Part shown: positions 20,350 through 32,064 of the stretch, piece after piece | How the letters are laid out: each line of letters opens with the position of its first letter | Position numbering within the stretch: position 1 is the first letter of the stretch | From: Candidatus Multivoradales bacterium | GTDB lineage: Bacteria; Acidobacteriota; Thermoanaerobaculia; Multivoradales; JAHEKO01 | Length of the DNA stretch: 64,000 bases | NCBI GenBank assembly: GCA_965223855.1 | Contig: CBDCXM010000009.1 | Span: 1,824,001 to 1,888,000 of the forward strand | Direction of reading: 5' to 3' | The notes under the pieces: model-generated | The model's database searches: none | What the model was told of the DNA's origin: nothing | What the model saw: only the letters and a program-made list of their open reading frames with translations | Program-made: the position numbers and the translations under genes

Positions 20350-22196
20350 TGCACCGTCTCCGAGCTGCGGCGGAAGGTCACGCCGAAGCGGGTCGATCCT
20401 TCGGCGCTGCCGTACTCGAGCTCGCCGCCGATCTGCTGGGCGAGGGCCGTGACGAGCCTGAGGCCGAGCGATCGAGTGGCGCCGATGTCGAAGCCGTCGG
20501 GCAGGCTGCTGCCCTGGTTGCGGACCTCGAGCCTCCGCTCGTCCCCCTCGGTACCGAAGAGCACCTCGACCGCTCCAGCCTCGTCACCGTCGCCCGCACC
20601 GTGCTCGAGGGCGTTGGCCACCAGTTCGTTGACGATCATCCCGCAGGGAATGGCGGTGTCGAGATCGAGCGGCTCGGAGGCGACGTCGAACCGGGTCTTC
20701 ACGTGACCGAGCCGGTCCCCGTACGAGGCGATCAGGTTCTCGACGAGTTCCTCGAGATAGGCGCGGAAGTCGATGCTCGCGAGGTCGGGCGAGCGGTACA
20801 GGTGCTCGTGAATGAGCGCCATCGAGCGGATGCGGTTCTGGCTCTCCACAAGCCCCTTGGACGACTCCGGAGAGTCCCCCTCCTGGAGGCGCAGCAGGCT
20901 GGAGACGATCTGCAGGTTGTTCTTGACCCGGTGGTGGATCTCCTTGAGCAGGAGATCTTTGTCCCGCAACGATTCGCGCAGCTCCTCCTCGGCCTGGCGG
21001 CGCTCGGTGATGTTGCGGGCAACGACGAGGAAGCCCTCGGTCTCGCCGCCGGACGATCGGAGTTCCGAGCGCGACAGCGATGCGGGGAAGGCCTCTCCGG
21101 TGGCGGCGCGCATCTCGAGCTCGGCGGTGCCTTCGACGAGGAGCGCTTCGGGCTCGGCGACGAAGTCCTCGAGAAGCCTGCCGCGCAGATCCTCCTCGGA
21201 GGCGGCGAGCTCGCGGGTGGCGACCTCGTTGGCCATCCGCAGCCGCCCGTCGACGTCGAAGACGAGCACCATCTCGGTCATCGACTGCAGGACATTGTCG
21301 AGGTAGGCGCGCGAGACCGTGGTTGCCTGGAGATTGGCCGCCATGTCGTTGAACGCCCGTGCCAGCAGCTCGAACTCGCTGTGGCCGCGGACCTCGACCT
21401 GCTGCTCGAGGTCTCCCTCGCCGAGCCTCAGCGCCGCGTCGCGAAGCTGGCCGAGGGGGCGCGAGATCGCACGCGAGAGCAGCAGTCCCAGCAGCACGGC
21501 GAGGGCGAAGGCGGCACCGGCGAGCCAGCGGTTGCGGCGCGTCGCCCGGTCGATCAGCGCCTCCGCCGCCTGCGCCTCGGTCGTCAGGTCGACCCGAGCC
21601 GCTGCGGCGAAGTCGCGGATCAGCGGCCGCAGCTGCTGGCGGTAGTGCGGTTCGAAGTCCTCGACGATGAACTCCCGGACCTGCTCGGTGGGGTGGTATC
21701 GCATCAGGTGGACGAGCCGCTCCTGGAGCTGCTGATGGACGGCGAACTCCCGCTCGATGGCACGCAGCCGCGAGCGGCGTTCCTCGAGCCCGCTGCCAGG
21801 AGGACTGTCGGCGCCGACGCTCTCGGCTCCCGGGCTCAGCCGGCTCGAGAGAGCCAGCGCCTGCCGGCTGCGCTCGAGGGAGTCCTCGAAGAGCTCGAGG
21901 CCGTCCTCGATCGCCTCGAGGTCGAGCCGTGGCACGGCGCCCCACTCCTCCTCGTGCGAGGCGTCGCCGGGACGCTGTCGATAACGCTCGCTGAGGATGC
22001 GGTAGGCGGCCGCCTCCGTGGTGCGCAGGGCCTTGTCCATGCCGTCGGCCGCCATGACCTCCTCGATCGAACTGCTGCGCAGATCGTTCATCTCCCGGCC
22101 GACGGCGGCCGAGGTGCGCTCGAGCAGAGCGCCGAGGATTCCGACCAGCAGGGCGATTCCGAGCAGCGAGATGGTGAGGAGGTGGCCGATGCGCAC
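20346..22196 (-). CDS. Membrane sensor histidine kinase (HAMP-PAS-HisKA_2-HATPase)
   Basis: Two TMs flanking a periplasmic domain, HAMP (ISRPLGQL..ARAFNDMA), PAS, LLKEIHHRVKNNLQ, NELVANALEH, SLGLRLV. Confidence 0.9.
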
Positions 22197-22235
22197 GTGG
22201 GTCGAACTCCGAAGCAGTTGTGGACATGACGCCCC

Positions 22236-22252
22236 AGCAAGCCCCCTGCCAG
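22236..22252 (-). promoter_or_regulatory. sigma54 -24/-12 promoter of the kinase-activator operon
   Basis: Minus strand CTGGCAGGGGGCTTGCT, close to TGGCAC-N5-TTGC. Confidence 0.7.
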
Positions 22253-22293
22253 CATCGGCAGGACGTCAGGTGAGGCTTTCGAAGGCCTCCGAC

Positions 22294-22330
22294 TGTATCA
22301 AAGTGTCTCAACGTGAGACACCGTGAGACA
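22294..22330. promoter_or_regulatory. Four phased heptamers TGTATCA/TGTCTCA/TGAGACA/TGAGACA (putative bEBP enhancer)
   Basis: Half-sites start at 22294, 22304, 22314 and 22324 (exact 10-bp period). The central pair is a perfect inverted repeat. Confidence 0.7.
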
Positions 22331-22428
22331 GATTGGCCGTGAAGGCTCCGGCAACCGCCGTCCCTTTCCTTTTGGCAGCCGATCCCGTAGCCTTGAAGCG
22401 CTCTCGAACCGTGGAGTGACTTCCTGAA

Positions 22429-23337
22429 ATGAGTGAGATGGACACTGTCGGCGTCGTCGGCGCCGGAACGATGGGACATGGCATCGCCCAGGTGGCGGCG
22501 CTGGCCGGCTACCGGGTGATCCTGAGCGATGTCGCGGCACCGGCGCTGGAGCGCGGACTCGAGCAGATCGAAAAGAGCCTCGGCAAGCTGGCTTCGAAGG
22601 AGAAGATCACGGCCGAGGCGGCGGCTGCGGCGGGAGAACGCGTCAGCGGCGCCACCGGGCTCGATGCTCTCAGCGAGGCACAACTCGTCGTCGAGGCGGT
22701 CGTCGAGCGCTTCGAGGTCAAGCAGCAGGTGCTGACGGAGCTCGACCGCCTCTGCCCGGACGAGACGATCCTGGCGACCAACACGAGCTCGATCTCGATC
22801 ACGAAGCTGGCCGCCGAGACCGGGCGGCCTGATCGGGTGATCGGGATGCACTTCATGAACCCGGTGCCGTTGATGAAGCTCGTGGAGATCATCCGTGGCC
22901 TGGCGACGAGCGATGCGACCTACGAAGCTGTGGCGGCCGCCACCCGCGCGATGGGGAAGACGCCCGTCGAGTGCAACGACGCACCCGGCTTCGTCTCCAA
23001 TCGCGTCCTGATGCCGATGATCAACGAGGCGATCTACTGCCTCTACGAGGGCGTCGGCGACCCGCCCGCGATCGACGAGATCATGCGGCTCGGCATGAAT
23101 CATCCGATGGGGCCGCTGGCGCTGGCCGACCTGATCGGTCTCGACGTCTGTCTCGACATTCTCCGCGTGCTGCTGGACGGCTTCGCGGACAGCAAGTACC
23201 GCCCGTGCCCGCTGCTGGTGCGGATGGTCGATGCCGGCTACCTCGGGCGCAAGGCGGGGCGGGGCTTCTACACCTATGACGGCGACGAGCAGTGTGCGTT
23301 CCACCCGACGCGCGGCTACGTTCCCGTGGCGCGCTGA
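22429..23337 (+). CDS. hbd: 3-hydroxybutyryl-CoA dehydrogenase
   Basis: [53 protein letters not shown]. Confidence 0.93.
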
Positions 23338-23376
23338 GTCTGGCGCGCTGAGACTGGTGAGCTGAGACCGCGCTCC

Positions 23377-25221
23377 ATGCTGTGCCAATCGTGCGGCGCC
23401 GAGAACGCCGAGGATCGCGAGCACTGCCTGCGCTGCCACCAGCGGCTGCTGGTGGTTTCGGGCACGCTGACCGAGGAGGACCTGTCCCTCGAGGCGGAGG
23501 GCGAGGAGGAGTTCTCGTTCGACGAGCACCTTCTGGAGCGGATCTCGATCCTCGAAGAAGCGGTGAAGCGCACCGCCGGCACCGTGCGGCAACTCCTGAC
23601 CGCCCTCGCATCCCAGGAGCGCGGCATGGTGGCGCAGCAGACCGGGCTGGCGACGCTGCGTGAGCTGCTGGAGGAAAAGCGGCTCCTCCATCGAGCCGAG
23701 TGGTTGGAGCGCTGGGAAGGCAAGATGGAGTACCAGCTCCTCGCGCTCGAGAAGCGGGAGCGCTTCGGGGAGCTCAAGGAGCGCATCGAGGCGCTCTTCC
23801 AGGGGAAGAAGGAGAAGCTCTTTCGCGAGCTGATCGAGGACGCCGAGTACGCGCTCTTCGCGGTCGACATCGAGCGGGCGCTCGCTGCGCTCGAAGCGGC
23901 CTACAAGCTCGACCGCGACAACTACGAGCTGGCGTTCTTCCTCGGTGAGACCCACTTCAACGAGGGCGACACGACGATCGCGCTGTCGTACTTCGAGCGG
24001 GTGCTGCGGGTGCGGCCGGAGCACTTCGAGGGACTCGTCTACAGCGGTGTCATCCATCAGGAGCGGGGTGACGCCGGTCGCGCGGAAGACCTCCTGCGAC
24101 GCGCCGTCGAGCTCTATCCGGACGAGTTCCTGCCGCTCTTCAGCCTCGGCGCCGTCTTCGCCGGCCAGGGGCGACTGACCCATGCCGTGACCCTGCTCGA
24201 GCAGGCGGTCGAGATCGACGGCGTCACCCAGGCGAGGTATCTGCTGGGCAACTGTCTCTACGAGATGGGCCGGCTTGGGCAGTCGATCCGGCAGCTCCAG
24301 GAGGTCGTCCGACAGGATCCCGCCCACGAGGAGGCGCACTACCTTCTGGGGCTCGCCTACCTGGACCGGGGCTGGAAGCGTAAGGCGCTCGATGCCTTCC
24401 GTCGTGCCCAGCAGCTCAACCCGAGCCGGATGCGCTACCAGGATCTGGTGCGCTACCTCTCCGGCCAGGGCGGCTCGCCGCTGCCGGCGGTCGGGAGCGA
24501 CGCACGCCGCTGGTTCGACGAGGGAGAAGCGCTCGCCGCCGATCATCCGGCCCGCAGCCTCTCCGCCTACCGCCGGGCGATTCAGGAGGAGCCGGAGAAC
24601 CCGACCCTCCTGATGTCCTATGCGATGGCGTGCATGAGGGCCCAGCGCCATCAGGAAGGGGAGCTCGTCAGCCGGCGGGTGCTCGAGCTCGATCCCGACC
24701 CGATGCTCAAGGCGACCGCGTATGCGACCCTGATCGAGGCGCTGCGCTCGTCTGGCCAGTATCGGGAGGGGAACCGGGTCGGGCGCCAGCTCCTCGACGA
24801 GGGAAGTTCCGACTACGCGCGCACGATCGCCTATTACGAGATGGCGTTCAATCTCGCCGAGATGGAAGAGGATCTCGACGTAGCCCTCGACTACGCCCGG
24901 CGGGCGCTCGACCTCGCCCCCGAGGAGCTGCGCCAGTTTCCGCTGGCGGCGGTCGGCTGGGTGCACTACAAACGCAAGGAGTTCGACCAGGCGATCGAGT
25001 ACCTGGAGCGCTCGAGCGACCTCGGACCCTCGGCGACGACCCTGACCCATCTCGGCATGGCGCTTCTCGCCTCGGGAGACGAGGGGAAGGCACGGCGGGC
25101 TCTCGCCGAGGCGAGGGAGTACGATCGCTCGGGTCCGTCGCTCGAACGGCGGATGATGGAGTGCCTGAAGGCCAGTGATCGACTGATCGCCCGCGTGCAG
25201 GACGCGCGGCGGAGGAGCTGA
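23377..25221 (+). CDS. Cytoplasmic zinc-ribbon + coiled-coil + TPR protein
   Basis: CQSCG..CLRC at the N-terminus, many TPR units (ARYLLGNCL, AHYLLGLAY), no signal peptide. Confidence 0.8.
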   Translation: MLCQSCGAENAEDREHCLRCHQRLLVVSGTLTEEDLSLEAEGEEEFSFDEHLLERISILEEAVKRTAGTVRQLLTALASQERGMVAQQTGLATLRELLEEKRLLHRAEWLERWEGKMEYQLLALEKRERFGELKERIEALFQGKKEKLFRELIEDAEYALFAVDIERALAALEAAYKLDRDNYELAFFLGETHFNEGDTTIALSYFERVLRVRPEHFEGLVYSGVIHQERGDAGRAEDLLRRAVELYPDEFLPLFSLGAVFAGQGRLTHAVTLLEQAVEIDGVTQARYLLGNCLYEMGRLGQSIRQLQEVVRQDPAHEEAHYLLGLAYLDRGWKRKALDAFRRAQQLNPSRMRYQDLVRYLSGQGGSPLPAVGSDARRWFDEGEALAADHPARSLSAYRRAIQEEPENPTLLMSYAMACMRAQRHQEGELVSRRVLELDPDPMLKATAYATLIEALRSSGQYREGNRVGRQLLDEGSSDYARTIAYYEMAFNLAEMEEDLDVALDYARRALDLAPEELRQFPLAAVGWVHYKRKEFDQAIEYLERSSDLGPSATTLTHLGMALLASGDEGKARRALAEAREYDRSGPSLERRMMECLKASDRLIARVQDARRRS

Positions 25222-25224
25222 AAG

Positions 25225-26934
25225 ATGCGTTGGAGCCGCTACTACCTCTTTACCAGCCGTGAGGTGCCCAAGGACGCCGAGGTGACGAGCCATCAGCTGA
25301 TGGCGCGCACCAGCATGATCCGCAAGGTCGCCGCCGGGATCTACAGCTACCTGCCTCTCGGCTGGCGCAGCATTCGCAAGCTCGAGTCGATCGTCCGGCG
25401 GGAGATGGAGCGGGCCGGCTCGGTCGAGCTGTCGATGCCGGCGGTCCATCCGGCCGAGCTGTGGCAGGAGTCGGGGCGGTGGGACCTCTACGGCCACCTG
25501 CTGCTGAGGATGCAGGATCGCAACGAGCGCGAGTTCTGCTTCGGGCCGACCCACGAGGAGGTCGTCACCGACATCGTCAGGCGCGACGTCAAGAGCTATC
25601 GCCAGCTGCCGCGCAACCTCTACCAGATCCAGACCAAGTTCCGCGACGAGATCCGGCCGCGCTTCGGCCTGATGCGCGGCCGCGAATTCATCATGAAGGA
25701 CGCCTACACCTTCCACGCGAGTCAGGAGTCGCTCGACGAGGCGTACGAGGCGATGCGGGCGGCCTACTGCCGGATCTTCGAGGCTTGCGGGCTCGAGTAC
25801 TCGATGGTGCAGGCGGACAGCGGCACGATCGGCGGCTCTTCCTCCCACGAATTCATGGTGCTGGCCGACACCGGCGAGGACGCGATCGTTCGCTCGCCCT
25901 CCGGCTCCTACGCCGCCAACGTCGAGCGGGCCTCGATCGCCCCGCTCGAGGCTCCGGCGGCCGAGTCCCCGGCCGAGATCACCGAGGTCGAGACTCCCGG
26001 CAAGACGACGGTGCCGGAGGTCGCACGGTTCCTCGACGTGCCGATCGAGCGCTTCGTCAAGACTCTGCTCTACGAGACGGAGGAGGAGTTCGTCGCCGTG
26101 CTCATTCGCGGAGACCGCGAAGTCAACGAGGTCAAGCTGGGCAACCTGCTCGACTCGACCCATCTGAGCCTCGCGGCCGAAGCCAAGGTGCGCGAGCTCA
26201 CAGGTGCGCCGGTCGGCTTCGCCGGGCCGGTCGGCCTGCCCGAGTCGGTCCGCCTCGTTGCCGACGAGTCGGTGCGCGCTCTGACGAATTTCGTCTGCGG
26301 TGCCAACGCCGCCGACCATCACTACACCGGCGTCAACTGGGATCGCGACACGACTCCCGGCGAGTGGGCGGACCTCGTCCTGGCCGAGGAGAGCGACGGC
26401 AGCCCCGACGGCGACGGAGCGCTCGAACTCCATCGCGGCATCGAGGTCGGCCACATCTTCGATCTCGGCACCAAGTACTCGACATCGATGCAGTGCCTCT
26501 ACGCCGACGAAAACGGCGAGCTCCAGCCGATGCTGATGGGCTGCTACGGCCTTGGGATCGGACGCACCGTAGCGGCCGCGGTCGAGCAGAACCACGACGC
26601 CGACGGCATCATCTGGCCGGTGCCTCTGGCGCCGTTCGAGGCGCTGATCGTCTCGCTCGACCCGGACGACGAGGCGGTGTCGAAGACCGCCGATCGCATC
26701 TACGAAGGGCTTCTCGAGGCGGGAGTCGACGTCTTCTACGACGACCGCTCGGAGCGCCCCGGAGTGAAGTTCAAGGACGCCGACCTGATCGGCTTCCCGG
26801 TGAGAGTGGTGGTCGGCGCGAGAGGGCTCGCCGAGGGGAAGGTCGAGGTGTCGTTGCGTCGCGACCGCGAGAAGCACCTGATCGACCCCGCCGAAGCGGT
26901 GGCGGCCGTCCGGTCGCGGCTGGCGGAAGGCTGA
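25225..26934 (+). CDS. proS: Prolyl-tRNA synthetase (bacterial type with editing domain)
   Basis: GPTHEE, YQIQTKFRDEIRPRFGLMRGREF, GIEVGHIF, MGCYGLG, RPGVKFKDADLIG. Confidence 0.97.
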   Translation: MRWSRYYLFTSREVPKDAEVTSHQLMARTSMIRKVAAGIYSYLPLGWRSIRKLESIVRREMERAGSVELSMPAVHPAELWQESGRWDLYGHLLLRMQDRNEREFCFGPTHEEVVTDIVRRDVKSYRQLPRNLYQIQTKFRDEIRPRFGLMRGREFIMKDAYTFHASQESLDEAYEAMRAAYCRIFEACGLEYSMVQADSGTIGGSSSHEFMVLADTGEDAIVRSPSGSYAANVERASIAPLEAPAAESPAEITEVETPGKTTVPEVARFLDVPIERFVKTLLYETEEEFVAVLIRGDREVNEVKLGNLLDSTHLSLAAEAKVRELTGAPVGFAGPVGLPESVRLVADESVRALTNFVCGANAADHHYTGVNWDRDTTPGEWADLVLAEESDGSPDGDGALELHRGIEVGHIFDLGTKYSTSMQCLYADENGELQPMLMGCYGLGIGRTVAAAVEQNHDADGIIWPVPLAPFEALIVSLDPDDEAVSKTADRIYEGLLEAGVDVFYDDRSERPGVKFKDADLIGFPVRVVVGARGLAEGKVEVSLRRDREKHLIDPAEAVAAVRSRLAEG

Positions 26935-26967: not shown

Positions 26968-29151
26968 TCAGGGCCGCCATCGGAGAGTCAGTCGGCCGCT
27001 GCGGCGCTCGAGAGGATGGAAATGTACGTCCTCGACCCCTTCGACCGGCTCGCCTCGAAGCCGTGAGGCGTAGTAGTACTCGATGTCGCTGTCCTCGCGG
27101 TCGAGGAGGTTGAAAGCGGCGAGTTCCAGGTCGAGGCCCGGTCGGAGCTTCCAGGTCGCCTTCGCGGTGACGTTGGAGGCGGACGCCCAGACCGCGGATC
27201 GATCCTCGATGAGCGGGGTGTCGGCGAAGTAGCGCCAGCGGAGGCTGCCGGAGAAGCGACCGAGGTCGCGCACGGTCACGCCTGCGGCGACCGTTCGGCC
27301 GATCGCTCCCGGGATGGCGTCGCCCGCGGGATCGGTGTCGGTGAACTCGGCGTCCGTCCAGGTGGCATCGGCGTCCAGGGTGAGCCAGCGGCGAGGGCGC
27401 CAGGTGTGGCTCCACTCGACGCCGAGTCGATGGCTTGGGCGGCTGGCTTCGGTCGCCCCGCCGTCGCCGACGAAGAGAAGCTCGGAGTCGAGCTCCAGCG
27501 AGAAGAGCGAGAGCGCCGTCGTCCAGACGCCGGATCCGGTCCGGACTCCGATCTCTGCACCGCGTGCGGCGACGAGCGGATCGACCGCTTCGACCGACTC
27601 TCCCGACGCCGGATCGACCCGGATCGTCGCCCCGCGGGCGTCGTTGCTGTGAAAGCCGCCGCCGTAGCCGAGGAAGTACTCGGTTCTGCCGAAGGGACCG
27701 AAGACGAGCGCGAGCTTGGGGGAGACGATGAGGTCGTCGGCGCTTCCCGAGTTCTCGGGGCGGGTGGCGGCGACCGTCGCGTCGTAGCCGTCGATGCGCA
27801 GGCCGAAGGTGCTGCGGAAGCGGTCGCTCCAACGCACGACGCTCTCGGCCCAGACTCCCACGCCCAGCTGCTCGATGCTGTCGTCGCGGACCGTGTCGAA
27901 GCGCTCGAGCTCGGTGGTGCGGAAGAGTCCGTTGTCGATGTCGTCGTAGCGCAGGTCGAGACCGGTTCGATTCGTCACCCGACGCTCGCCGAAAGAGCTC
28001 AGCCACTCGTGTCGGGTGCCAAAGCCGAGCACGGTCCGGTCGTCGACCTGCTCGAACTGGTCGCCGAGAGCAGGGTTGTCGAGGAGATAGGTGAAGTTCG
28101 AGATCAGCCGGAAGTCGTAGGAAACCAAGTAGCCGGCGACGGTCGTCAGCGACTGTTCGTTGCCGCGATGGAGCTCGGCCGAGAGCTGCAGCCGTCGGGT
28201 TTCGCCTCGCGGCCCGGGGTCGATCAGGTCGAAGCGACCGATCGCGCCCGACTCGACGGCGCGCAACGGCACCTGGTCGGTCGACAGCCAGGAGCCGTCG
28301 TAGGCGAGCGCGCTGACCGAGAAGCCGCGGGCGGGATCGCCGCGATGAAAGCTCACGAGAGCGTTCGCCTTCTCGAACGAGCCGGGCCGGGTCCAGGGAC
28401 CGTCTTCGTGCGAGAGGTCGAGGGCCGCGGTCAGGTCGCCGCCTCCGGTCGTCGTGCTGCCGGCAACGAGCGCTCTGCCAAAGCCGAAGCTGCCGCCCGA
28501 AAGCTGGATCAACGGCTCATCGAGCCTTCTCACGAGCCCGAGGTCGGCCGAACCGGCGGCCGAGAAGTCGCCGACCTCGGCATCGTAGGTGCCCTTGCGA
28601 TAGGAGACTCGATCGACCAGCTCCGGGATCAGGAAGGAGACGTCGATGTACCCCTGGCCGTGCCCGTGCGACGGCATGTTGACCGGTACCCCGGCGACGC
28701 GGATGCTGAAGTCGGTGCCGTGGTCGAGATTGAAGCCGCGCAGGAAGTACTGATTCGCCTTGCCGCCGCCGCTGTGCTGGGTGGCGATGATGCCGGGGAC
28801 CGTCTCGACGAGCTCTCCGGCGCGCTGGATCGGCCGCTGTTGCAGATCTTCGGCGCCGGTCGTGCCCTCGCTGGCGGCGTCGGTGAGCCCGGTGAGGTCG
28901 TCGGTGCGCCCTCGCACTTCGACCCGGTCGTAGACGTCGAGACGATCGTCCTCCTGGTCGGGGTCAGGGTTGGCGGTTTCGGCCGGGGCCTCGTTGTCGA
29001 CCGTCCGAGGTGCTTCGACACCGGCAGGAGCGGTCTCCTGAAGGGGCGCGGAGGGCGCGGAAGACACCTCGGCGCCGGCAGGCCAGCCGACGAGGAAGAT
29101 CGTTGCCAGAACGGGGGGCAGGATTCGGATTCGTGTTCGGATTCGGAGCAT
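26968..29151 (-). CDS. TonB-dependent receptor (probable metal uptake)
   Basis: Signal peptide. Plug TQHSGGGKANQYFLRGFNLDHGTDF and PVNMPSHGHGQGY. FHSNDARG, FNLLD, EDVHFHP. Confidence 0.9.
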   Translation of the reverse strand: MLRIRTRIRILPPVLATIFLVGWPAGAEVSSAPSAPLQETAPAGVEAPRTVDNEAPAETANPDPDQEDDRLDVYDRVEVRGRTDDLTGLTDAASEGTTGAEDLQQRPIQRAGELVETVPGIIATQHSGGGKANQYFLRGFNLDHGTDFSIRVAGVPVNMPSHGHGQGYIDVSFLIPELVDRVSYRKGTYDAEVGDFSAAGSADLGLVRRLDEPLIQLSGGSFGFGRALVAGSTTTGGGDLTAALDLSHEDGPWTRPGSFEKANALVSFHRGDPARGFSVSALAYDGSWLSTDQVPLRAVESGAIGRFDLIDPGPRGETRRLQLSAELHRGNEQSLTTVAGYLVSYDFRLISNFTYLLDNPALGDQFEQVDDRTVLGFGTRHEWLSSFGERRVTNRTGLDLRYDDIDNGLFRTTELERFDTVRDDSIEQLGVGVWAESVVRWSDRFRSTFGLRIDGYDATVAATRPENSGSADDLIVSPKLALVFGPFGRTEYFLGYGGGFHSNDARGATIRVDPASGESVEAVDPLVAARGAEIGVRTGSGVWTTALSLFSLELDSELLFVGDGGATEASRPSHRLGVEWSHTWRPRRWLTLDADATWTDAEFTDTDPAGDAIPGAIGRTVAAGVTVRDLGRFSGSLRWRYFADTPLIEDRSAVWASASNVTAKATWKLRPGLDLELAAFNLLDREDSDIEYYYASRLRGEPVEGVEDVHFHPLERRSGRLTLRWRP

Positions 29152-29354
29152 GAGCCTTCTCTCTCTCCGGGCTTCGTAACCCACCCGGACGCCTCGGGTT
29201 CGCTCCCGCAAGGCTCGCGTTGCGAAGATCCGCGCGCACTCCGCGCGCACGAGCCTGCCGGGGAGAGGATCCGGGCAATCCGGAGGCCGGAGAATCGGGT
29301 CGATCGAGTCGGGTCGCTCGCCTTGCGGCGGGCGGCACGGCGGTCAGACGACTC

Positions 29355-29771
29355 TCAGGCGGGGCTGGGGGGAGCCCGGGCGGGTGACCCCGTGTGGTGA
29401 CGGTGGACGCTCGCCTCCCAGGCTTGCGCGACCGTTTCCGTGGTGACCGTGGGCTCGAGCAGGTCGTGCTCGGCGGCAGCGACGCCGAGCGAAGCTGCGA
29501 GCAGACTGACGAACCCCTCAGAGTCCTGCTCGTCCTCCGCAGGCGAAGGTCGTCCCTCCGGCTCCGATCCTCGGTCCGAGCGATCAGGCTCGTAAGCCCC
29601 TCCACCACCTGGCTCATGGCGATGCTTCCCCAGGTGCGGGTGGGTGTGGAACCCCTCGAACCCGCCGAGTAGGTGGAGGTGGCCGTGCGAGACGATGCCG
29701 AGGACACCCAGACTCGCCGCCGCCGCAACAGCCAACAGCAGAAGGAGGCGGGTCTGGGGGGCGGCTCTCAT
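29355..29771 (-). CDS. His-rich leader protein with C-terminal RAPP motif (DUF2946/CruR-like arrest peptide)
   Basis: N-terminal hydrophobic helix, 12 His, no Cys, ends SPARAPPSPA*. Lies directly upstream of the TBDT. Confidence 0.75.
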   Translation of the reverse strand: MRAAPQTRLLLLLAVAAAASLGVLGIVSHGHLHLLGGFEGFHTHPHLGKHRHEPGGGGAYEPDRSDRGSEPEGRPSPAEDEQDSEGFVSLLAASLGVAAAEHDLLEPTVTTETVAQAWEASVHRHHTGSPARAPPSPA

Positions 29772-29881: not shown

Positions 29882-30694
29882 CTACCGAGGCCGCGGACTG
29901 TACTGACGCGCCAGCAGCCGGCACAGTCCGTCGAGACCGGGGAAGAGCACCCTCTCGTTGACGTTCGCCTGGTCGAGCTTGTCGCGGATCTCCCATTTGA
30001 GCTCGTGCGGGATCTCGATCCGGCGGTAGACCTCGGGTCTCGGCAGCAGCCACTCCTCGACCGTCATGCGGGCGCTCGAGAGCACCGAGAAGAGGGCGAA
30101 CTGGTTGACGATTCGCGGGCTCAGAGACGGCGGTTCGAAGAAGACGAGGAAGGGGTCCTCGCGCAGCCCCTCGAAGTCCGGCAGGGAGGCGGCGACCTCG
30201 CCGAGCATCTCGGTGGAGAAGGCGTCCGCCTCTTCCCGGCGCAGAGACTTCAGCAGCTCGGGTGGGAGCTGCTTGTTGGTTCGCGTGTAGTCGATGCACC
30301 AGATCGTGCCGTCTTCGTCGAAGCGGCGGATGTCGTCGGTAACGAAGTGGAGCGCGACGAACGGGGAGTAGGTCCAGTCCAGCAGCCGGGTCGGCAGGCC
30401 GTGGTGCTGGGCCTGGGCGAGCAGGTTCCACATCGACCTCTGCTCGCCACCCTCGAGGTAGGCGTACTTGCGGAAGTTGCGGATCAGGTGACGCTCGAGG
30501 CGGGCGTAGTCCCCTCCCAGTCGCGAGAGGCTGGTCTGGAGCGGCCAGTCGCGCGACGCCATGCCGCGGAAGGCGTAGGTCGACCGGTAGCGCCCGATCG
30601 CCGGCTGCCACGATCCCTCGAAGAGCTCGTTCTGAAGCTCCGCCCAGCTCCCGACCCGGACGACCTTCGCCGGGCGTGCCCTCTTCTCCGGCAC
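29882..30694 (-). CDS. FRG-domain protein
   Basis: YAFRGM, AQHHGLPTRLLDWT.SPFVALHF, PRIVNQ, VLFPGLDG. Confidence 0.88.
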   Translation of the reverse strand: MPEKRARPAKVVRVGSWAELQNELFEGSWQPAIGRYRSTYAFRGMASRDWPLQTSLSRLGGDYARLERHLIRNFRKYAYLEGGEQRSMWNLLAQAQHHGLPTRLLDWTYSPFVALHFVTDDIRRFDEDGTIWCIDYTRTNKQLPPELLKSLRREEADAFSTEMLGEVAASLPDFEGLREDPFLVFFEPPSLSPRIVNQFALFSVLSSARMTVEEWLLPRPEVYRRIEIPHELKWEIRDKLDQANVNERVLFPGLDGLCRLLARQYSPRPR

Positions 30695-30702
30695 CGGGTC
30701 GC

Positions 30703-32064
30703 CTACTCCCCGGTCTCGGTGAGCGGCTCTTCGGAGTCCTGAAGGACGGCGCGCAGGCGGGTGATGCGGTTGCCGTCGAGATCCTGGATCTCGACCGACA
30801 TGCGACCGACCTCGACCTTGTCTCCCACCCGCGGCTGCCGCCCCAACTCCGAGAGGACGACGCCGCCGATCGTGTCCTCGTCGCGGTCCGAGAGCTCGGT
30901 CGCCAGCTCGTCCTCGAAGTCGGCGACCAGCATCGATCCGGCGACGTCGAACGTGTTGTCACCCCGGGCGACCAGCTCCGGCTCCTCCATGTCGAACTCG
31001 TCCTGGATGTCGCCGACGATCTCCTCGAGCACGTTCTCCATGGTGACGATGCCGCTGACGCCGCCGTACTCGTCGAGCACCGCGCTCATGTAGACGTGCT
31101 CGAGCCGCATCCGCCTCAGCAGCCGGTCGAGGCTCAGCGTCTCGGGAACGAACGTCATCGCCCGTTTCACCTCGAGCAGCGACGACGGCGGCGATTCGGC
31201 CCTGAAGAGATCCTTGATGTGGACGAGGCCGATCACGTGATCGAGGTCGCCGTCGCACAGCGGGAAGCGGGTGTGCCCGCTGTCGCGCGCCAGAGAGAGG
31301 CTCTCTTCGACGGGGTTCTGGATGTCGAGGAAGATCACTTCGTTTCTCGGCACCATCGCCTGTCGGGTGATGCGGTCGGAGAGCTCGAAGATGTTGTCGA
31401 GGAGCTCCCGTTTCTGGCCCGAGATGTGGTCGTCGTCGGCGCTCGCGAGCATCCTTCTGAGCTCCGCCTCGTCTCCCACCGAGTGGTGCTCGCTCATCGG
31501 TCGCATGCCGATCAGCCGCAGCAGCATGTTGGACGCCTCGTTCAGCACCCAGATCGCCGGGAAGGTGATCTTGTAGAAAAGCCACAGCGGCCACGAAATC
31601 CACAGACTCGTGCGCAGGGGCTTCCTGATCGCCACCGTCTTCGGCGCCATCTCGCCGAGCACGATGTGAAGGATCGTGATCGTCAGGAAGGAGATGACGA
31701 TCGCCACCTGATGGACGTTGGCGTCGGTCGCGCCCGGAAAGAGCCGCACGACCGGTTCGACGACCCAGGCGAACGCCGGCTCTCCGATCCAGCCGAGGGC
31801 GAGGCTCGCCAGTGTGATTCCCAGCTGACAGGCCGAGAGATAGGCGTCGAGATGCTCCACCATGTGGCTGGCGACCCGGCCGCTTCCACCGGCGGCGTGC
31901 GGCTCGAGCTGCGTCGGCCGAACCTTCACCAGCGCGAACTCGGCGGCGACGAAGAAGCCGTTGAGAAATACCAGGAGCATGCCGAAGAACAGGCCCCAGC
32001 CCGGGCTGAGCAGGGGTTCTCCGGCGGGCAGGCTCGCCAGTGGCAACAGAACCGTCGGATTCAT
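30703..32064 (-). CDS. HlyC/CorC (CNNM-CBS-CorC) family membrane protein, Mg/Co efflux-associated
   Basis: NGFFVAAEFALV, CQLGITLASLALGWIGEP, LGEMAPK, GHTRFP, DEYGG..GIVTMENVLEEIVGDIQDEFD. Confidence 0.92.
   Translation of the reverse strand: MNPTVLLPLASLPAGEPLLSPGWGLFFGMLLVFLNGFFVAAEFALVKVRPTQLEPHAAGGSGRVASHMVEHLDAYLSACQLGITLASLALGWIGEPAFAWVVEPVVRLFPGATDANVHQVAIVISFLTITILHIVLGEMAPKTVAIRKPLRTSLWISWPLWLFYKITFPAIWVLNEASNMLLRLIGMRPMSEHHSVGDEAELRRMLASADDDHISGQKRELLDNIFELSDRITRQAMVPRNEVIFLDIQNPVEESLSLARDSGHTRFPLCDGDLDHVIGLVHIKDLFRAESPPSSLLEVKRAMTFVPETLSLDRLLRRMRLEHVYMSAVLDEYGGVSGIVTMENVLEEIVGDIQDEFDMEEPELVARGDNTFDVAGSMLVADFEDELATELSDRDEDTIGGVVLSELGRQPRVGDKVEVGRMSVEIQDLDGNRITRLRAVLQDSEEPLTETGE

Follow-up and report, generated by a model that had tools for sequence, protein, structure and literature searches.

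A His-Rich Leader Peptide Ending in RAPP Precedes a TonB-Dependent Transporter in an Acidobacterium and May Sense Nickel

What is the role of a small, His-rich open reading frame (ORF) that immediately precedes a TonB-dependent transporter (TBDT) gene in Candidatus Multivoradales bacterium, a member of the Acidobacteriota, and, if it is a regulator, which metal does it sense? The locus lies in a stretch of 64,000 nucleotides (nt) of contig CBDCXM010000009.1, here called the window. A sequence-only reading of this stretch had taken the ORF for a new kind of metal-sensing translational switch, built on a nascent chain that stalls its own ribosome at the motif RAPP. On balance, we consider it probable that the leader is a cis-acting regulatory arrest peptide that senses nickel, or a close neighbor of nickel, and controls the TBDT. 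That it is a regulatory arrest leader of some sort we hold with higher confidence than this full nickel reading, and the participation of the termination factor Rho with lower confidence. Our observations are the ORF and its motifs, the conservation of its amino acids, its linkage to one clade of TBDTs, the nickel context of that clade, and no detectable homology to DUF2946, the family of the copper-responsive leader CruR; from these we infer the arrest, the topology, which metal is sensed, in which direction the TBDT is regulated, and that Rho takes part.

The locus is made up of the following parts, where A2 denotes an alignment of 68 members of the leader family.

29355..29771, minus strand: leader ORF, 138 amino acids (aa), Cys-free, from an unnamed family of His-rich R[A/G/P]PP leaders
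29694..29759, minus strand: N-terminal hydrophobic helix, residues 5-26, following the Arg-containing MRAAPQTR (predicted by the structure model and by conserved hydrophobic columns in A2)
29616..29687, minus strand: His cluster SHGHLHLLGGFEGFHTHPHLGKHRHE, residues 29-52, with candidate ligands H31, H33, H42, H44, H50, and H52; G48 is conserved too
29367..29378, minus strand: putative RAPP arrest motif (R132-P135), three residues ahead of the stop, codons read directly
29260..29460, minus strand (the coding strand): C-rich, G-poor tract, candidate Rho utilization (rut) region, reaching over the leader 3' end and the leader-proximal half of the spacer
29152..29354, minus strand: spacer of 203 nt from the leader stop to the TBDT start
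26968..29151, minus strand: TBDT, 727 aa, with Pfam Plug and barrel domains

The leader starts with MRAAPQTR and continues through about 19 hydrophobic residues, the His cluster, and an acidic Gly/Pro-rich stretch to the C-terminus ...HRHHTGSPARAPPSPA, ahead of a TGA stop (29355-29357). The motif codons are R132 (29376-29378), A133 (29373-29375), P134 (29370-29372), and P135 (29367-29369). Codon by codon, then, the 138-aa ORF is as the sequence-only reading had described it, with a hydrophobic N-terminal helix, a His cluster, an acidic spacer, and RAPP at 29367-29378. In this leader, the His cluster lies 80 to 101 residues before R132 of RAPP. An AlphaFold2 model based on A2 has a helix at residues 5-26 (predicted local distance difference test [pLDDT], 85-93) and a beta-hairpin, 30-35/38-43, that bears the first His residues (pLDDT, ~70-82); the remaining chain is disordered. 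The helix is probably a signal-anchor or a signal peptide, and its two N-terminal Arg residues suggest, by the positive-inside rule, an N-in/C-out orientation. If the helix inserts N-in, the His cluster would be periplasmic. Family scans assigned the leader to no Pfam family at an E value of ≤0.1 and to no NCBIfam family.

A protein without a database family in a genome of 68% G+C content could be an open frame that arose by chance, as such a genome is rich in long shadow frames. A word-index search with the leader alone against 5.8 billion proteins returned only the leader itself among 1396 candidates; it took profile searches and searches anchored on the locus to reveal the family. When 60 related genomes were searched in six frames, seven weak matches to the leader emerged. 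Five of these (L002, L003, L004, L005, and L007) are true small leaders, each directly upstream of a TBDT homolog, and all are built alike, with a hydrophobic helix after a basic N-terminus, then a His cluster and an acidic spacer, and RAPP or RGPP at the C-terminal end. The remaining two matches, L006 and L008, were rejected as leaders, with neither a TBDT nor the motif at the locus. A profile of the six sequences (A1, the window leader plus the five) retrieved 70 matches at an E value of ≤1e-3 from 1.84 billion representative proteins. All but two of them, namely, a 917-aa protein and a sequence without the motif, are proteins of 118 to 176 aa with R[A/G/P]PP no more than 17 residues from the C-terminus; these 68 sequences make up A2. 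Seven residues are invariant in A2 (H42, H44, H50, H52, R132, P134, and P135), five more (M1, H31, H33, G48, and P71) are at least 90% conserved, and the hydrophobic columns of the N-terminal helix are maintained; no other residue is conserved. After the motif Arg comes G (31 sequences), A (30), or P (7), and before it P in 45; the tail beyond the motif is 1 to 17 residues long. The last conserved His precedes the motif Arg by 70 to 112 residues (median, 79; window leader, 80), and by 70 to 88 in 61 of the 68. Cys is not conserved: 25 sequences have none and 22 have one, while CxxC occurs in 3 of the 70 matches. The family is rare, with matches at an E value of ≤1e-5 in 7 of the 301 Acidobacteriota genomes that were sampled, and of ten members looked up, three carry a name in their source, in each case "hypothetical protein."

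An independent anchor was provided by loci found through the TBDT protein alone; confirmed relatives of this protein numbered 561, of which we retained the best 80. Seventeen of these loci (L009-L025) are from Acidobacteriota, and 15 of the 17 carry an upstream His-rich ORF with R[AGP]PP. In 12 of the 17, the upstream ORF has R[AG]PP within 25 residues of its end. As for individual loci, the L010 leader has RAPP 37 residues and RPPP 9 residues before its stop, L012 and L014 have His-rich leaders that end in RPPP, L017 has an ambiguous leader, and L016 has none. The sequence-only reading had made its case depend on conservation of RAPP among homologous leaders upstream of orthologous TBDTs; in these 15 loci and in the 68 relatives, the motif is there. 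For comparison, R[AG]PP is present in the last 21 residues of 98 of 14,196 six-frame ORFs of 100 to 220 aa in the window genome (0.69%). Over 18 leader loci, the motif codons vary synonymously (Arg, CGC/CGG/CGA/CGT; Pro, CCC/CCG/CCA/CCT), which indicates selection on the peptide rather than on an RNA motif. Overall, the chance-frame explanation is refuted by the conservation data, that is, by the residues that 68 relatives share, by the conserved linkage of the leader to one TBDT clade, and by the synonymous codon variation, and we give it practically no weight; judged by its conservation, the leader ORF is a real gene. Matches of the motif pattern at L030, L040, and L049 resemble chance frames, having neither helix nor His cluster, and were not counted as leaders.

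In its build, the leader resembles CruR (Bp2923) of Bordetella pertussis, a DUF2946 (PF11162) protein that leads the cruR-crtA(bfrG)-bp2921 operon (PMC9426467). As described there, the hallmarks of DUF2946 are CXXC and RAPP, separated by 45 residues, ±1-2, with RAPP three residues from the end. CruR is encoded at the head of its TBDT operon and is followed by a spacer of 162 nt, the rut region is recognizable by a C>G "bubble," and arrest at RAPP prevents Rho-dependent termination until copper relieves it (PMC9426467). The arrest of CruR has also been demonstrated in vitro (PMC12992588). The window locus matches this anatomy in its small ORF, which encodes a metal-ligand motif behind an export or anchor helix at the N-terminus, in RAPP three residues before the stop, in the TBDT directly downstream on the same strand behind a long spacer (162 nt for CruR, 203 nt here), and in a C>G tract that extends over the 3' part of the leader and on into the spacer. 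The analogy to CruR that had been drawn from the sequence thus holds, as does the proposal that His takes the place of CxxC: there are six conserved His residues and no conserved Cys.

Yet the two leaders differ in other respects. The ligand-to-RAPP spacing of 70 to 112 residues compares with 45 ± 2 in DUF2946, the metal context of the leader's TBDT clade is nickel rather than copper, and downstream of the window TBDT there is no PepSY_TM gene but a convergent gene that is probably proS. An hhalign comparison of A2 with DUF2946 aligned only the last 15 columns (PR[AG]PP), at 8% probability, and a PF11162 scan of the whole window genome at an E value of ≤1 did not match the leader locus; 6 of the 68 family members match PF11162 weakly, the best at 2.6e-4. 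Our comparison set consisted of 13 true DUF2946 genes from genomes of the order Burkholderiales, all with CxxC and R[AG]PP. The TBDTs behind these genes are similar to the window TBDT at the level of the plug only (27% identity over 130 aa); the latter is accordingly not close to the CrtA type, the copper TBDT family defined in PMC12914433. The leader may therefore work like CruR without being a demonstrable member of DUF2946, and, as far as sequence comparison goes, the likeness may reflect convergence or a kinship too ancient to be recognized.

The window genome contains further leader-like ORFs. Two small ORFs that end in RAPP(A/AA), L116:3758-4150 (minus) and L117:4134-4547 (minus) (G000:C6; G000:C9:3063133-3063546), have a hydrophobic N-terminus, some His, and a CxxC 42 to 44 residues before RAPP, a CruR-like spacing. 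Each is directly upstream of a CarboxypepD_reg-Plug-barrel TBDT, and neither matches DUF2946 at an E value of ≤0.01. This genome hence has at least three leader-TBDT pairs, of which only the window pair is Cys-free. A 144-aa ORF ending in SPRGPPVLLS, L091:1507-1938 (minus) (G000:C8:353375-353626), is directly upstream of a Phenol_MetA_deg-type barrel (6e-08); it matches the leader profile weakly (E = 0.002), through its C-terminal part only.

If the leader is a sensor, the transporter that it precedes should be informative about the metal. Counted from the ATG after GAGAGAAGG, behind which a typical signal peptide is encoded, the TBDT has 727 aa; this start leaves a spacer of 203 nt, and the in-frame GTG at 29250 would leave one of 104 nt. 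Both the plug (PF07715, 1.9e-13) and the barrel (PF00593, 2.9e-16) were found by Pfam, while the subfamily matches in an NCBIfam scan were all below threshold. A sequence search of the PDB with the TBDT gave only the plug of BtuB (2e-6), the presence of the CrtA chain among the sequences searched being unconfirmed. Among the 81 sequences of the TBDT family, H126, H144, H162, H164, and H501 are present in all 81, H710 in 77, and H712 in 76; no Cys is conserved. These seven invariant or nearly invariant His residues include those of SHGHGQG (residues 161-167, 28651-28671) and VHFHP (residues 709-713, 27013-27027), the motifs that the sequence-only reading had pointed out in the TBDT about 200 nt downstream of the leader.

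The neighborhoods of the 80 orthologous TBDT loci point to nickel. In 12 of them, nikR adjoins the TBDT gene, being directly upstream on the same strand in 7, divergent in 3, and downstream in 2; the neighboring NikR has a NikR_C domain (2.4e-29) and a ribbon-helix-helix domain. The gene for the large subunit of a [NiFe]-hydrogenase is found further upstream in 5 of the 12. HupE/UreJ-type genes are present in 9 of the 80 loci, directly upstream in 2 and as a nearby HupE_UreJ_2 gene in 7. In addition, 7 of the 12 nikR loci have a palindrome of the form GTATGA-N15/16-TCATAC shortly before the TBDT. We take it to be the NikR operator by its match to the Escherichia coli consensus GTATGA-N16-TCATAC. 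Six of the seven palindromes are perfect, and a perfect one is found in none of the remaining 68 loci. NikR and its operator are specific for nickel. Palindromes of the form GTATGAAGA ... TCTTCATAC are located between nikR and the TBDT, at about 2785-2970, in L038, L041, L046, L048, L049, L050, and L087, from Methyloversatilis and related Betaproteobacteria; they look like NikR operators.

The NikR-linked orthologs are 44 to 49% identical to the window TBDT over about 650 residues. In a FastTree phylogeny of the 81 TBDTs, the Acidobacteriota form one clade (the window and L009-L025), whose sister clade contains NikR-linked betaproteobacterial TBDTs; two more NikR-linked TBDTs are placed elsewhere. 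Because nikR, NikR boxes, HupE/UreJ genes, and [NiFe]-hydrogenase genes are found near orthologs, the clade probably imports nickel, or possibly nickel and cobalt, and the leader is most simply read, from these neighborhoods, as occupying the place that NikR has in the Proteobacteria. NikR control shares with the window locus the TBDT family, with the same seven conserved His residues, and a presumed logic in which uptake is off at nickel sufficiency. It differs in that NikR is a trans-acting DNA-binding repressor, whereas the leader acts, as proposed, in cis as a peptide. NikR was not found in the window genome, which is 92% complete, so that genes there are "not found" rather than "absent." Family scans of this genome gave no match to NikR, NicO, or urease, and tblastn with the NikR, HupE, and [NiFe]-hydrogenase sequences from the other loci returned nothing; nickel superoxide dismutase (Ni-SOD) is present above the cutoff (4e-30). 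NikR occurs in the genomes of 2 of 61 relatives, neither of which has the leader. Taken together, nikR, NikR boxes, HupE/UreJ, [NiFe]-hydrogenase genes, and a Ni-SOD without a NikR match narrow the choice of nickel, cobalt, or zinc, which the sequence-only reading had left standing, in favor of nickel (or cobalt).

How might the leader act on the TBDT? In the mechanism that we propose, the leader is translated and its N-terminal helix would bring the nascent chain to the membrane. Once the ribosome reaches RAPP, the six-His cluster would be outside it, probably across the membrane. The spacing is compatible with this step, since 70 to 112 residues separate the last His from the motif, compared with the roughly 30 residues in the ribosomal tunnel, and about 17 across the membrane, estimated in work on the CutF leader (PMC9973294); the whole cluster should thus be clear of the tunnel by the time RAPP has been reached. 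The ribosome would arrest when RAPP occupies the peptidyl-transferase center and would cover the end of the C-rich, G-poor tract, which would keep Rho off the transcript, and RNA polymerase would then pass through the 203-nt spacer so that the TBDT is made. When the metal is plentiful, its binding to the His cluster would free the arrest through folding or a pulling force. The freed ribosome would terminate three codons past RAPP, and Rho would load and end transcription in the spacer, switching uptake off. Nickel, alone or together with cobalt, is the likeliest metal to be sensed, in which case the leader would do the work of NikR in this lineage.

Several features of the locus agree with the Rho step. 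C exceeds G by 15.4% over the 200 nt at 29260..29460, within the top 0.9% of such segments in the 3.2-Mb contig, and the tract peaks at about 29361 (C, 50%; G, 27%), over RAPP and the stop. Across the 18 leader loci, the median C-minus-G value is +9 to +17% from -100 to +40 nt around RxPP and about 0 beyond +60. A rho gene is present in the window genome, there is no intrinsic terminator on the minus strand of the 203-nt spacer, and no Rfam family was matched in it.

We also put forward, tentatively, a bolder version of this mechanism, which we think possible but doubtful. In this version, the His cluster would be threaded through the translocon during the wait at RAPP and would bind Ni(II) brought in by the leader's own TBDT; the force of binding would free the arrest, and Rho would stop the operon. 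A spacing of at least 70 residues would span tunnel plus membrane. The family would then be an invention convergent with DUF2946 that replaced NikR in the Acidobacteriota. Its members would monitor the periplasm and would be the first arrest peptides to sense any metal besides copper.

A number of points weigh against a nickel-sensing leader that works through Rho. The invariance of RxPP in all 68 sequences of A2 is partly circular, because the search profile itself held the motif. Confidence in the leader model as a whole is low (mean pLDDT, 67), and we infer, rather than observe, the periplasmic exposure of the His cluster. Since the signal peptide of CruR is reported as unimportant, the membrane step may, by analogy, be irrelevant here too. 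The C-rich tract is weak evidence for a rut site because the codons for Pro, Ala, Arg, and His are themselves rich in C and because C exceeds G through much of the leaders and into the 5' end of the TBDT gene as well. Regarding the metal, the assignment of nickel comes by sequence similarity from orthologs of 44 to 49% identity in other phyla. Within the leader clade, the direct nickel context amounts to one HupE_UreJ_2 gene about 1 kb downstream in L012, plus the genomic Ni-SOD. Ni-SOD was found in 8 of the 61 relatives, namely, 3 of the 6 with a credible leader and 5 of the 55 others, a co-occurrence that is only a hint, as these genomes are kin and not independent. Finally, His clusters bind Zn, Co, and Cu(II) as well.

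This last point leads to the alternative that the mechanism is as we propose and the metal is zinc, cobalt, or copper(II) instead of nickel, which we regard as unlikely though serious. His-only sites are unselective on sequence grounds, the direct nickel context within the leader clade is thin, and HupE/UreJ proteins have been tied to cobalt as well as nickel (PMC9973294). Against it stand the nickel-specific NikR and its operator beside orthologs and the [NiFe]-hydrogenase genes near the TBDT in five loci. Moreover, neither the window region nor the 18 orthologous loci without a recognized regulator yielded a cobalamin or other riboswitch in Rfam searches, and the same genome has two CxxC RAPP leaders that would be its natural copper sensors. 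Less probable, in our view, is a difference in the regulatory step, in which the same arrest peptide acts on translation, as SecM and CutF do, with the ribosome paused at RAPP melting an RNA structure that hides the ribosome-binding site of the TBDT. Such a mechanism has been shown for CutF-cutO (PMC9973294), and some homologous loci have shorter spacers, estimated at about 45 to 100 nt. In the window, however, the Shine-Dalgarno (SD) bases AAGG (29155-29158) have an unpaired probability of ~1.0 and the AUG is predicted to be unpaired too; pairing between the RAPP-to-stop region and the SD region is matched by 56% of shuffled sequences, the best duplex anywhere in the spacer by 24%, and the fold z-score of the spacer, only -1.0, is not unusual. 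The stalled ribosome would, besides, be about 200 nt away from the TBDT start. As the ribosome-binding site is predicted to be open and pairing is no better than in shuffles, unmasking of the SecM/CutF type has no support here. The "translational switch" of the sequence-only reading is therefore doubtful, and, by analogy to CruR, the anatomy of the leader more likely fits Rho-dependent attenuation.

The idea that the ORF is not regulatory at all has the least in its favor of these three, and we consider it improbable. The protein would be a stable, membrane-anchored, periplasmic His-rich chaperone or store of metal that aids the TBDT, and RxPP would be a pause that helps membrane insertion. 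The conserved helix and His cluster, the possible beta-hairpin, and the constant pairing of the gene with a TBDT would suit such a protein. But the approximately 80 residues from the His cluster to RxPP are of low complexity, poorly conserved, and modeled as disordered, and only R, P, and P, close to the end of the chain and ahead of a tail of variable length, are invariant outside the His cluster. This is the pattern expected of an arrest motif and not of a folded domain. CruR and CutF are reported to be undetectable as mature proteins. We thus favor the cis-acting arrest peptide, with nickel or a close neighbor as its cue.

To what extent is such a leader new? CutF of Rhodobacter capsulatus acts on a stem-loop that hides the SD sequence of cutO (PMC9973294). 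The window leader is like CutF in being a nascent exported chain with an extracytoplasmic metal-ligand motif and a Pro-rich C-terminus, and it differs in that the SD-hiding stem-loop has no counterpart in the window spacer. Clusters 14 and 17 of the sequence similarity network of CutF-like proteins have His-rich motifs only and HupE/UreJ neighbors, for which binding of Ni/Co was suggested; these lists were built from seeds centered on Proteobacteria (PMC9973294). Set against this description, the window leader has a His-only ligand motif and a Pro motif, and its neighbor is a TBDT and not HupE/UreJ; HupE/UreJ genes do occur beside orthologous TBDTs among the 80 loci. Small ORFs with RAPP or RGPP have also been described as over-represented upstream of TBDT genes, "universally" in Gram-negative bacteria and nearly all with signal sequences, and arrest at RAPP/RGPP has been shown for other proteins (PMC12992588). 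The window leader has the attributes of this "TonB-related" class as given there: a C-terminal RAPP/RGPP, a localization signal (helix 5-26), and a TBDT directly downstream. The main text of PMC12992588 makes no mention of nickel, zinc, or a His-rich subclass. ApdA, ApdP, and SecM, in turn, monitor the Sec machinery, while the proposed cue of the window leader is a metal.

Our literature search found no description of a His-rich RAPP leader before a nickel-type TBDT, although the supplements of PMC9973294 and PMC12992588 may list such proteins. The nascent-chain principle and the RAPP/RGPP-TBDT class (PMC12992588), as well as His-only CutF-like leaders beside Ni/Co genes (PMC9973294), are already published, so that the novelty which the sequence-only reading claimed for this kind of regulator was overstated. 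What is new is this sequence family, its six-His signature and long spacing, the link to a NikR-type TBDT clade, and the occurrence in Acidobacteriota.

Other upstream proteins accompany TBDT orthologs outside the Acidobacteriota. A different leader family precedes the TBDT in L042, L056, L064, L068, L071, and L085 (Opitutaceae and relatives), at about 1000-2800 in each locus. Its members carry W-x-C-A-N-x-P-Q and F-S/T-H-Q, end in R-x-P-P ... (G/E)PPR, and belong to no Pfam family at the curated cutoff; in L042, L056, and L071, the leader is located between a HupE_UreJ_2 gene and the TBDT. In L032, L033, L060, and L062 (Verrucomicrobiota and Hydrogenedentota), longer His-containing ORFs that end in RAPP or RGPP are found upstream of the TBDT orthologs; the acidobacterial leader profile does not recognize them at an E value of ≤0.01, and those of L032 and L060 have no Pfam family. 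In L051, L066, L075, L082, and L086 (Verrucomicrobiota), membrane-anchored Metal_resist (PF13801)/LTXXQ proteins, presumably of the CnrX/ZraP type, are encoded directly upstream of the TBDT, at about 1470-2210; they carry F-H-x-W-L-H and C-terminal His residues.

On the other side of the window TBDT, its 3' end is met by a convergent 569-aa ORF on the plus strand (25225-26934), by sequence probably the prolyl-tRNA synthetase gene proS, and the leader and the TBDT thus form a pair without a downstream operon partner; nor do the Acidobacteriota loci share a conserved downstream gene. A 2097-aa ORF on the minus strand (20584-26877), which overlaps 25225-26934, resembles a shadow frame of G+C-rich DNA. 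Upstream of the leader and across a gap of 110 nt, with no sigma-70-like promoter detected, is the gene for an FRG-domain protein (29882-30694, minus strand; 3e-27), itself preceded by one for a CNNM/CorC-type transporter with CBS domains (30703-32064, minus strand; 1.9e-46).

Copper is so far the only metal for which control through a nascent chain has been shown experimentally, in CruR and CutF. The leader and its TBDT offer a compact two-gene system in which to ask whether nickel is sensed likewise, whether this takes place across a membrane, and how a His cluster at least 80 residues from the peptidyl-transferase center can release an arrest at RAPP. The locus would also illustrate regulatory displacement within one TBDT family, which is associated with NikR in Betaproteobacteria, with other leaders or CnrX-like proteins in Verrucomicrobiota, and with the present leader in Acidobacteriota. 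For the family itself, nickel, with or without cobalt, emerges as the probable substrate of a widespread and uncharacterized clade of TBDTs with seven conserved His residues.

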